IMG/VR virus record: IMGVR_UViG_2713896788_000013
DNA from: a virus
Lineage: Duplodnaviria > Heunggongvirae > Uroviricota > Caudoviricetes
Length of the DNA stretch: 10,130 nucleotides
Direction: 5' to 3' (one strand)
The position numbers were made by a program. Shown piece by piece: positions 1 through 3,000 of the stretch (position 1 is the stretch's first letter; each line of letters starts with the position of its first letter).

Positions 1-3000
1 CTGCCGTTGGTGTTCATGCCCGAGGCAGATAGCCTCAAGCACCCGCAGCAATTCTACTTAACTATCCTTTTCCCGCAAACCGTTTTTATCCCCAGCGGCA
101 AATCGAATACACCACCAGCGCCACCGCCATCGCAATTCCTACCGTTGTGAATGCTTCAGGCCAGGTCATTGATTCACCTCCTGCGGCGGTTCTGGTAGCG
201 ACATCCAGTGGGTTGCTTGCCTAAGATCATTACCCGGACTAACTGCTATACCTCCGCGCCGGAACGTGCCTCCGAGATAGCGTGCGGAATATATTAATGG
301 CCCAGCCTCGCTATCGATATTCATCGAAATAAGCACGTTCTGGCTCTTTTCAGGCATTCGCTCAGTACAGCTTATCCAGCCATCCAGAGTTATCGGAGAT
401 CTGGTTGACGTTTCCGAGATTTCCCGAAAATTGTTGGTTGACGAATTCTTATTTTCCCGAAAGTTTCCGGCCTGAAGCATGGCGACGCGGCAGGCGTTCC
501 AGCCATCAGCATATGTTTTAGTTACACCGTCGAGATGGCAGGTAAGCAAATCCATTTCATCAGGCACTACCATTGCTATCGGCTCTGCTTCCAGTGATGC
601 CAGCGCGATACGAAACACATTAGCCAGCAGGCTGTCTGAAGACTTGTTATCGTGCGCCGAGTCGCTCAGGAAGCCTGTGATGTATGATTTAATCTCCGCG
701 CGTTCTCTGGTAATAGTGCTCATATCAGTTTTCCTTATACGGATTAATTTTATTGTGCAGTGCGCTGAATGATTCCCATGTCACATCGGTATATAGCTCA
801 ATAACTGGTTCAAATGTCCTTCCAATTATCCAGACCAGTAATAGCGGGGATATCGGTATCATCAACACTATAAACAGAATGAAAAACAGAAACTCTGTTG
901 TTCTGCTCTTTCGTGGGTAATTTTTTTCTAAATAATGTTTCATTTCTTACCGCCCTTTCGGGCGGCCTCCTGATGTTCTGAGGGTGCAGGAATCCCTCCG
1001 GTTAAGGATTTAATAAAAATCGTTTCTGATTTAAATCTTCAGTATTTAGTTGTTAGTTGGTTTATCGCCTTTATGCTTCAGCCTTATTTCGCAACCAGAC
1101 ACAAACCGGGCCATCTTCCGTATCATGAATGGAACCAATAAACCAGCCATCGCCCTCTGGTCGTTCCGGTTCCCATGCAGAAATATCAGCATCACACGCA
1201 TCAAGGTCAGCACATCCTTCATCTCTGAAGCAGAGGACGTATTGAAGATTATTTTCCTCCATCCAGGCGTTAAACTCTTCCGTTGAAATATATTCCCGAC
1301 CATCACAGAATTTTTCATATTCAGGATGTGTCCAGTAGCCATATCCGTCACGAACTACCGGCATTTCTTTAATTTCACTCACTGTTAACCTCCTGCAACG
1401 CTACACGATACGCCTTCTTTATCCACGCCTTACTGCCATATAATTTCGTCTTCATAATAAACACACCTGCACGACTCGCCGATATCCCCGGACAGGTTAA
1501 CAGCACAGCATCCACCACACGGTTATGCTTCCGAAACTCCATTACAGTACTGCTGATAACCACCTGCCCCACCGGGCCGTAATCCTGATACAGGATTTTC
1601 ACGCAGACACCCTCCTGTCGAAATAAACGTAGTTATTCACTATGCGCAGCGGCATGCCTAATTTTCTGGCAATTTCCCTTCTTTGCATGCCTCTCTGATG
1701 CAGTTGCCGCGCCAGCTCAATATCACGCTGAGAATATTTTGCCGACGGGTGAAAATCACCACGTAACATCATGCTGATGCCCAGCTCCCGTGCCTTCGTT
1801 CTCACTGCCGCTTCAGTTCGTCCGATAAGTGCGCCAACGCTTTTTACCTTCATCGTTCCCGCACACTGCCGGAGTATCATGATTTCCGCCCGGCACCACG
1901 TCTTCCACCCACTCACCGCTGCTGTTCTCTGGTGGCGGTAATATCCCGGAGAATATCCCGGCACTTGTTCAGCTCCCGCAGCGCGGCGCAGACTCGCTCC
2001 CACTTCTGAACCTGACCTTTTGCCCGGCGCAGCTCGCGGTTAGCCACATGCAGCGATGGTAAAATCAGACCATCCGGATGCTTTCTGGTGAACGACGGCT
2101 GTGACTGCACTGTGACCGCCACACTTTCCGTTTTTATTTCTTCCTGTGTTTCCGCTTCCCCGACTGGTAACGCAACACCTGCTGGCTGAGGAAAGGCTTT
2201 ACCATCCGTTTCCGTTATGGATGCGGCTTTCGGCTCTGCCGGTAAATCAGCGCCCGGTATGCAGTACCGAAATTTACCGCCCTGATTCACGCGAATCAGA
2301 CGCCCTTTGCTGATTGCCATGGCCAGTGATGAATTCGCCCGGCGGGAGGTAATCCCGAACATCAGTGCCAGCTCATCCGCCGTTTGTGGGCCATGATGTT
2401 CAATCGCCTCAGTCAGCATTTGCGCTGTCACTTTCGGTACCGGTGACACTGGTTCACTTTCACCAGTCTGAGTCAGCCACCACATCGACCCCTTGTTATC
2501 CGCTTCACCACGGCGCTTCAGTTTCCACAGTTCGTTGACAGCATCTTCGCGGCTGATTCCAAGGCGCGATGCCACTACCTGTGAAGAGGCTTTTTTCAGT
2601 GCTTTCAGTGCGTCAAATACGGTTTCCATTAATATTTCCTCCGACAAAATCGTTTCTCAGATTCAAATAAAACCAGCTGCCTTCCGGCGTTCGTATTCCT
2701 GTTTCAGCCGTTCAATTGGCGTTGGCCCTTGCGGGTGTTTCGCCCCTTCCAGTTGTCGTCGCACTGGCGGAACACTCATCCCGTTACCAACATGCTTTGC
2801 CCATTTCGTCAGTTGCCGTTCCGCAAGTCGTTTTAACTCACCTTGCGTCATCTGGCGCTCAATCCCTCTGGTACGCATTTCGAGGCAGATGTGGTACAGC
2901 ACAGGCTGTGGCCACGGGTATTTATCACTCCCGTCGTATCGCCAGGATTCATTGCGCCAGCGCCGGTACTCTTCCATCACGGCATCCACCGTAAGACCAA

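Follow-up and report, generated by a model that had tools for sequence, protein, structure and literature searches.

The question raised by this locus is whether a very short, hydrophobic open reading frame (ORF) beside a phage gene of the DUF551 type encodes a protein, and what such a protein would do. The stretch of DNA analysed, called the window below, comprises 10,130 nucleotides of IMG/VR record IMGVR_UViG_2713896788_000013, a virus of the Caudoviricetes. It shows 100% identity to Escherichia coli O157:H7 chromosomes, where it is the immunity, replication and nin region of the lambdoid prophage Sp11 (Sakai numbering). An earlier note on this DNA had proposed that the ORF at 86..169 is an unannotated gene for a 27-residue peptide with one transmembrane helix, preceded by a strong Shine-Dalgarno (SD) sequence and coupled to the DUF551 gene upstream. 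On the comparative evidence given here, 86..169(-) is a genuine protein-coding gene under purifying selection. We consider it probable that the product is a single-pass inner-membrane microprotein, translationally coupled and delayed-early, which modulates a larger inner-membrane protein.

The anatomy of the gene agrees with the earlier description. An AGGAGGT element (182..176) stands at the ideal spacing of 6 nucleotides from the start codon, which overlaps the upstream stop codon as ATGA, and the 3' end of the DUF551 gene is thus the source of the microprotein SD (Table 1). The single predicted transmembrane helix was also recovered. The best 19-residue Kyte-Doolittle window of the peptide covers residues 6-24 and reaches 2.11, where the usual threshold for a membrane helix is 1.6, and this places the ORF second in hydropathy when all 50 ORFs in the window that begin with ATG and have 20-40 codons are ranked. 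The peptide is laid out as an acidic N-tail of five residues (M-x-W-P-E/D-A), about 19 hydrophobic residues rich in small side chains (G11, A13, A15, A17), and a brief C-terminal tail that includes a basic residue (C-R-W-G).

Conservation of the frame in related prophages had been named in the earlier note as the way to check the gene. A tblastn search of 50,697 phage records returned 94 records with 59-100% identity, nearly all of them across the full 27 residues, and in the ten that were read the frame, the length and the overlap with the upstream gene were all unchanged. Among the variants are those of 933W (MTWPEAFANVGTVMAVVLVVYSICRWR), BP-4795 (MNWPEAFTAVGVAIAVAFILYSLFRWG) and PhiR12_1 (MSWPDAIVTLGMVFAAAFVVYSICRWG), as well as a 24-residue form in the P1-like phage SJ46; phage POCJ13 carries a TGG to TAG change at codon 3. 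As a less biased sample, IMG/VR was scanned using a pattern of the first six codons only. The 120 hits included about 100 homologues, 11 chance matches and five distant look-alikes. Every one of the approximately 100 homologues is open at 24-27 codons and none is frameshifted, the length variants differing by whole codons (the 24-residue SJ46 type and a 25-residue form, L082) with a late nonsense codon in one case (L129). The check therefore came out in favour of the gene, with only in-frame variation in length.

The core set derived from these homologues consisted of 50 distinct nucleotide sequences encoding 30 peptides. The ratio of non-synonymous to synonymous substitution rates (dN/dS) by the method of Nei and Gojobori was 0.27 over 1176 pairs, and was the same for codons 7-27 as for the whole ORF. 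Of the events placed on a tree by parsimony, 106 were synonymous and 85 non-synonymous, the expected synonymous share being about 25% (binomial P of about 1e-19), and the changes at codon positions 1, 2 and 3 numbered 41, 39 and 111, respectively. The reference peptide is encoded identically by 12 different DNA sequences. Replacements are almost all of one hydrophobic residue for another (A, V, I, L, M, F, T), so that residues 6-24 keep a hydropathy of 1.85-2.76 across all core variants; both termini of the peptide are conserved, and the core of the helix varies among hydrophobic residues. Codon 2 always begins with A (T, S, N or I) in the core set because of the ATGA overlap. A chance origin of the short ORF and its SD is excluded by these comparative data.

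The surroundings of the gene were compared in the same manner. Upstream of 113 core copies we found a DUF551-type end (...HWMPLPEPPQEV..) in 51, an unrelated '...NGLISVEDILR' end in 28, a DUF551 stump (...SERMPDDRQEVNQ) in 11, a coiled-coil protein of the 933W L0139 type in six and other genes in seven; in the remaining ten no upstream gene was found or the contig ended. The claimed coupling to a DUF551 gene is therefore correct for the window and too narrow in general, at least four other kinds of upstream gene being used elsewhere. The junction itself is widespread: among 119 peptide loci scored, 109 had an identifiable upstream ORF, with the ATGA overlap in 92 and a 1-nucleotide overlap in 15. 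Together with the conserved frame and the dN/dS of 0.27, the 92 ATGA overlaps sustain the view that this is a real, translationally coupled gene. The SD core is retained in 28 of 30 distinct 20-nucleotide upstream contexts, and the stop codon of the 113 copies is TAA in 106, TGA in six and TAG in one. Homology to unrelated contexts begins at the SD or just before it, the sequence 3' of the stop is unrelated between phages from the first base on, and in many E. coli genomes the blastn homology extends exactly from ATG to stop. Recombination boundaries which match the SD and the stop codon are expected of a selected coding module.

The possibility that the ORF is the disrupted start, or a domain, of a longer gene had also been raised, and neither tblastn nor a protein-cluster search found a longer homologue. 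The latter covered 5.8 billion proteins, with a 44-residue in-frame extension of the peptide as query, and returned 46 clusters from Escherichia (including E. albertii), Shigella and Salmonella, all of 25-71 residues; no longer protein with the peptide as a domain was among them. The longer clusters owe their length to starts called too far upstream, to sporadic loss of the stop codon, to expanded Ala-Met or Ala-Val repeats or, in a few singletons, to a frameshift. In-frame expansions of the helix give peptides of 31-42 residues (P0042, P0069, P0071, P0072, P0075); these include Ala-Met/Ala-Val repeats from slippage of GCGATG/GCGGTG hexamers and one duplication of 15 residues. Stop-loss variants with unrelated basic tails are recurrent, with P0050 on 62 contigs, P0056 on 13 and P0057 on 15.

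Known families were searched for the peptide. No significant match was obtained in Pfam, PHROG, NCBIfam, PADLOC or the PDB. A match to phrog_4612 was marginal (E=0.004-0.02), also when an N-terminally extended query was used. The KdpF model TIGR02115 gave 14.7 bits over 12 residues, below its curated cutoff of 26.85, and membership of that family was rejected. Identity with DUF551 (PF04448) was rejected as well, since the upstream 185-residue protein has a hit to this model and the peptide has none. From reading the sequences, a lipoprotein signal was discarded: Y-S-I-C is a poor lipobox, and the Cys is missing in distant members. In length (not above 50 residues), in its one hydrophobic helix and in being constrained as a protein, the peptide has the properties of the microprotein class.

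The mode of action which we propose runs as follows. We infer from the gene order that the ORF lies within the pR-driven, delayed-early nin operon, and one would accordingly expect the peptide to be absent from the lysogen and to be produced once the prophage is induced or a cell infected. Judging from the anatomy of the junction, ribosomes finishing the DUF551 gene would reinitiate at the overlapping ATG, aided by the strong SD, and peptide output would track the expression of the upstream gene. An N-out (periplasmic), C-in topology is predicted from the charges beside the helix, with an acidic residue on its N-terminal side and Arg, Lys or His on its C-terminal side in nearly all members. 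The peptide would insert into the inner membrane like other small proteins which lack a tail, and, by analogy with known microproteins, may bind laterally to a larger protein of that membrane, which would belong to the host or possibly to the phage. A lateral mode of binding is suggested by the conserved termini, the variably hydrophobic core, and the occurrence of the same peptide behind unrelated upstream genes. Such binding would modulate the activity of the partner to the advantage of the phage early in lytic growth, with envelope, transport or division functions, or the exclusion of other phages, as candidate processes. Conserved ends around a variable hydrophobic core appear to fit specific recognition better than generic membrane damage, and the small residues at 11, 13, 15 and 17 are also compatible with it.

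Four other explanations were weighed against this proposal, three of which concern the coding evidence or the neighbouring gene. It is hardly credible that the ORF is untranslated and is conserved for the sake of an antisense gene, of RNA structure or of a DNA site. The antisense frame which shares the wobble position has a dN/dS of 0.28 and is open in 49 of the 50 sequences, as this explanation would have it, but any real gene should produce an artefact of this sort. Neither in the window nor in 64 of 81 distinct contexts does the antisense frame contain a start codon from which it could cover the region, and in the remaining contexts it has no SD. The other four frames carry stops or have a dN/dS above 0.7. 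The RNA of the ORF folds no better than shuffled sequences (z=-0.45) and is overlapped by no Rfam family, whereas the sense frame retains its ATG, its stop and its SD. A translated but inert peptide, serving as a coupling or reinitiation spacer against Rho-dependent polarity or as a shield before the next module, would agree with the position of the ORF at module junctions, with the coupling junction that DUF551 genes universally carry at their 3' end and with the fact that many microprotein ORFs arise beside gene ends (PMC11188072). It is nevertheless highly improbable in the face of selection at the amino acid level (the dN/dS and the excess of third-position changes), a length held at 27 codons, the retained hydrophobic character, and an N-terminal motif kept at the protein level, with varying codons, in phages of 30-70% guanine-plus-cytosine (GC) content. 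The peptide might instead be a membrane anchor or partner subunit of the upstream, typically DUF551, protein, coupling serving to set a fixed proportion in a membrane-tethered complex. The nearly universal start/stop overlap (92 ATGA and 15 one-base overlaps at the 119 loci) speaks for this, as do the presence of the peptide after 31 of 80 independently sampled DUF551 genes and the DUF551 genes adjoining two distant members (upstream of L121, downstream of L238). We regard an anchor as quite unlikely, since an identical peptide follows the 114-residue '...GLISVEDILR' family, the 933W L0139 type, an 86-residue protein of SJ46 and DUF551 stumps, about half of the DUF551 genes use the same junction for different downstream genes, and most distant members have no DUF551 neighbour.

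The fourth explanation, at which the earlier note had hinted by listing toxins and holin-like modulators beside regulators of membrane proteins, is a toxin of the kil or holin-like type which damages the inner membrane directly by depolarisation or pore formation, for host shut-off or lysis timing, and has no specific partner. It is unlikely, though it deserves more weight than the other three. The peptide resembles type I toxins (Hok/Gef, TisB, Ibs, ShoB, DinQ) in its presence in prophages and, like small lytic peptides, in size and hydrophobicity (27 residues, 2.11); its SD is strong, its operon is repressed in lysogens, which would make toxicity tolerable, and in Sp11 and 933W it adjoins a hok/sok locus. 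In contrast to those toxins, the ORF has no cognate antisense RNA, no long structured leader and no promoter of its own, and is coupled within an operon. The Rfam sok match begins 42 nucleotides after its stop and belongs to hok, and the downstream DNA is phage-specific, being unrelated in other phages. That the ORF is itself a part of hok/sok, or of its promoter, was rejected on similar grounds, as the sok match starts at window position 44 and many phages that have the peptide lack hok. The peptide is linked to no known type I family by a match in Pfam, NCBIfam or PADLOC, or by homology to Hok/Gef. A holin, pinholin or antiholin found no significant PHROG or Pfam hit, and the sole hits in the lysis category were to an Rz-like spanin (E=0.18-0.83) for one distant peptide. 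In the records inspected the ORF occupies the nin or exo-xis/ea early regions, or their equivalents in P1-like phages, outside any lysis cassette. Terminal motifs which are invariant across very different phages speak more for specific recognition than for generic membrane damage. A holin or a classical type I toxin fits the context poorly.

Several observations weigh against a modulator of a larger membrane protein, or limit how far it can be taken. The conserved positions of the helix do not recur with a clean one-face (100 degree) period, and a defined packing face can therefore not be claimed. The IMG/VR scans used the N-terminal motif as part of their bait; it is also kept in the tblastn hits, which were free of this constraint. 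The close family is narrow, Salmonella contributing some members and Escherichia and Shigella the others. Variants with a nonsense codon, a lost stop, a frameshift or an expanded repeat turn up occasionally and imply that the peptide gene is dispensable in many prophages. A ribosome-profiling study of Sakai used a minimum of 30 residues and so excluded ORFs below that length, and no entry for the peptide was found in the searched supplements of two enterohaemorrhagic E. coli studies and of the Enterobacteriaceae microprotein catalogue. Finally, the distant look-alikes described below may be homologous or convergent.

Small inner-membrane proteins of related design are well known. AcrZ, MgtS, KdpF, CydX, MgrB and PmrR are single-helix proteins of at most 50 residues, often unannotated, each of which binds a larger membrane protein. 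They differ from the present peptide in being chromosomal, in having known partners and often in having their own regulation, the peptide being phage-borne. The Pf3 coat protein, a virion protein of 44 residues, is inserted N-out/C-in with the help of YidC and has an acidic N-tail and a basic C-flank (...GIRWIK). Our peptide likewise has an acidic residue ahead of the helix and Arg or Lys right behind it (...ICRWG), but is not homologous to Pf3 coat, and its insertion pathway is a prediction. The model for a phage peptide of this size with a single host membrane protein as its target is PfsE (PA0721) of the Pseudomonas filamentous phage Pf4, an inner-membrane microprotein of 30 residues which binds PilC through a conserved aromatic motif, YAWGW, and blocks superinfection (PMC8764522). 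Both are phage-encoded, have about 30 residues and one hydrophobic helix, and carry short aromatic motifs (here W-P-E-A and Y-S-I-C-R-W-G). Unlike PfsE, which is reported to be N-in, the peptide is predicted to be N-out; the two share no sequence similarity, their phages (Inovirus versus lambdoid or P1-like) and hosts differ, and the mode of action is carried over by analogy. Hydrophobic microproteins under selection are abundant in the Enterobacteriaceae, and in the Entero67K catalogue about 13% of the ORFs with an upstream gene in the same orientation begin no more than 10 nucleotides from the stop of that gene (PMC11188072). The peptide resembles these entries as an unannotated hydrophobic ORF of the 15-70-codon class under purifying selection, and differs from them in being phage-borne and in having probable relatives far outside the Enterobacteriaceae. 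As the ORF overlaps the upstream gene, a strictly intergenic screen may miss it. Unannotated microproteins and small phage membrane peptides are already established, and the peptide is a new family of that kind, with no new principle.

Five non-core hits from IMG/VR share the architecture of the peptide, and one of them (L121) follows a DUF551 gene. We propose a definition, 'WPEA-TM', which reads M-x-W-P-(E/D)-A, about 19 hydrophobic residues and a brief tail bearing a basic or charged residue, 23-36 residues in all; the window peptide and all core variants fit it. A codon-degenerate scan for M-N-W-P-E-A-I/M gave 21 hits, 16 with the peptide architecture (26-33 residues), and one for M-T-W-P-E-A-I/M gave 28 hits, 20 of them with it (23-36 residues). 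The scrambled control M-N-P-W-E-A-I/M gave one hit, which did not have the architecture. Between them the two real patterns yielded 22 distinct further peptides on contigs of 30-70% GC. The Pro, Glu and Ala residues in the motif of the distant peptides are specified by every codon available to them (four, two and four, respectively), and these varied wobble bases imply that the motif is conserved at the protein level. Many distant peptides overlap the upstream stop as ATGA, and one (L238) has two DUF551 ORFs downstream. No Pfam or PHROG family matched the distant peptides, and tblastn of two of them against cultured-phage records found no match. The shared motif and architecture, the frequent ATGA coupling and the two DUF551 adjacencies argue for common descent, in peptides which are too short for significant profile scores. 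We tentatively raise the possibility that in this ORF E. coli has its member of a large unrecognised phage family, 'WPEA-TM', of about 25-35 residues, which extends through phages whose hosts range from 30 to 70% GC, presents an invariant N-terminal M-x-W-P-E/D-A at the outer face of the inner membrane and acts on one deeply conserved envelope component; an insertase, a protease, a flippase or an energy-transducing complex would be examples.

A tight clade of 28-residue peptides (MTWPEAIIVIFLAALMLVISWFCDHHHF and variants, with a His-rich tail) was seen in contigs of 30-55 kb from metagenome 3300045988 (loci L242, L244, L245, L251, L254, L256-L258, L261, L262, L264-L268 and L027). In L027 the ATG of the peptide overlaps the stop of a 366-residue ORF which looks DNA-polymerase-like from its sequence, a context very unlike that of the E. 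coli group. Divergent paralogues of the MTWPEAF... and MSWPDAI... types occur once each in E. coli ECMA0423 (L139/L140) and in Shigella flexneri SFBU1023 (L138/L141), and their origin from the same record suggests tandem DUF551-plus-peptide modules in a single prophage.

The junction at the end of the DUF551 gene was also studied independently of the peptide, using 80 loci picked by the DUF551 motif alone. Of these, 31 were followed by the peptide and three by a copy with a nonsense codon at position 3, where POCJ13 has its TAG, and 40 were followed by other ORFs, many of which are coupled by the same '...PEPPQEV[KNR]x*ATG' junction. The 3' end of DUF551 is, as far as can be judged from these junctions, a general coupling site, of which the peptide is the commonest passenger, with others in existence. 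DUF551 3' ends (...W-M-P-L-P-E-P-P-Q-E-V-[KNR]-x-stop; window 166..185) encode a GGAGGT SD and share bases with the start codon that follows. Passengers at this junction (loci L142-L221) include a 190-residue exonuclease-like protein, 131-residue proteins of the L0139 type and a 92-residue membrane protein. The N-termini called for 933W L0139 (L005) and of a 110-residue ORF of SJ46 (L012), which contain …TLDAATRTAAGGE…, are an out-of-frame reading of the DUF551 3' end. The true starts are probably the downstream ATG codons at the coupling junction (MENEG… in 933W and MDVKEK… in SJ46), and the deposited start of 933W L0139 looks too far upstream.

Table 1. Position of the microprotein gene and of neighbouring features in the window
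Feature	Position	Strand	Details
27-residue microprotein coding sequence	86..169	(-)	ATG 169..167, TAA 88..86; product MTWPEAFTTVGIAMAVALVVYSICRWG
Shine-Dalgarno sequence AGGAGGT	176..182	(-)	6-nucleotide spacer gaatca (175..170) to ATG; within terminal Q-E-V codons of upstream gene
ATGA start/stop overlap, coupling junction	166..169	(-)	microprotein ATG and TGA of upstream DUF551 gene
Upstream DUF551-domain gene, 185 residues, ECs_2199 in Sakai	166..723	(-)	Pfam PF04448, E=5.3e-20; RefSeq annotation
hok/sok locus, first 44 nucleotides (hok mRNA leader, Rfam 'sok' model), cut by window edge	1..44	(-)	RF01794, 113.5 bits, E=1e-26
Probable hok promoter	51..78	(-)	-35 TTGCGG 78..73, 16-nucleotide spacer, -10 TAGAAT 56..51; read from sequence

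Along the direction of the ORF, Sp11 carries cro/cI-like genes and YdaT, the O-like and P replication genes, DUF1627, several small genes, DUF4014, DUF551, the 27-codon ORF, hok/mok/sok, a YgiW-like gene, DUF968, RusA and a DUF1133 family gene which, by its position, is probably a Q-type antiterminator. Annotated Hok/Gef and MokC coding sequences lie downstream of the ORF. In locus L002, which continues beyond the window edge, the RF01794 match spans 13097-13271, beginning at window position 44 and extending beyond position 1, and the probable promoter and the hok/mok/sok locus together span 13063-13421, with the Hok coding sequence about 125 nucleotides beyond the window edge. The TTGCGG and TAGAAT elements, directly 3' of the stop codon and outside the peptide gene, are the probable hok promoter; they were not flagged by a consensus promoter scan of the region. 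The annotation of phage 933W has the same arrangement, with the peptide followed by sokW/mokW/hokW. This E. coli prophage region also has a match, at 91% nucleotide identity, in record PP818812.1, which bears the name Actinobacillus phage vB_Apl-pPE4; such a match is unexpected for the stated host.

A second unannotated and very hydrophobic ORF, of 36 codons (MSFIMALLILIVLLVAAALLVFPYNYQSIQSGPCSA; best 19-residue hydropathy 3.4), was noticed at 6594..6704(-). It starts one base past the stop of a hypothetical coding sequence of 69 residues, is antisense to one of 212 residues, and has no obvious SD.

The distribution of the gene was determined on complete genomes. Of 5426 complete E. coli genomes, 1740 contain the ORF together with its SD, at 3447 places and up to eight per genome, and 164 of these places are on plasmids of about 90-100 kb. 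A strict pattern applied to the GTDB species representatives found it only in E. coli and Shigella flexneri, with two places each. All major Shiga-toxin phage types examined have it (933W, VT2-Sakai, BP-4795 and ArgO145), while it is absent from lambda itself and after yfdS in K-12. With respect to annotation, the word 'unannotated' used earlier holds for RefSeq/PGAP and for all phage records inspected, none of which annotates the ORF; it does not hold for a few GenBank submissions, where the exact 27-residue product is called 'hypothetical protein' or 'bacteriophage protein' (AOM45384.1, ASL59396.1 and EIL24003.1 are examples). Neither the sequence nor the motif of the peptide was found in the literature searched. 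Peptide fragments of 25-39 residues at contig edges are labelled 'DUF551 domain-containing protein, partial' by NCBI (P0012, P0017, P0048, P0052, P0058, P0059, P0064, P0070, P0077). This naming is an error of annotation propagation, to judge by the different frame and the lack of any shared sequence. The clustering of the peptide with DUF551 proteins of 121 and 185 residues in the protein collection was likewise found not to come from shared sequence.

A gene of 27 codons is thus carried by about a third of the complete E. coli genomes, yet the RefSeq pipeline never calls it. The ORF sits in accessory regions which have been studied genetically, exo-xis and nin, and published genetics, for example on Ea22, was interpreted without knowledge of it. 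Deletions or clones that include the 3' end of the Ea22 or DUF551 gene will often remove or add the peptide too. Being so short, the peptide is easy to synthesise and test. Peptides of the same architecture in uncultivated phages of very different hosts suggest a common and simple phage action on the inner membrane, and if the wider family is real and acts on one envelope component, phages would have in the 'WPEA-TM' peptides a general means of manipulating the inner membrane of bacteria.

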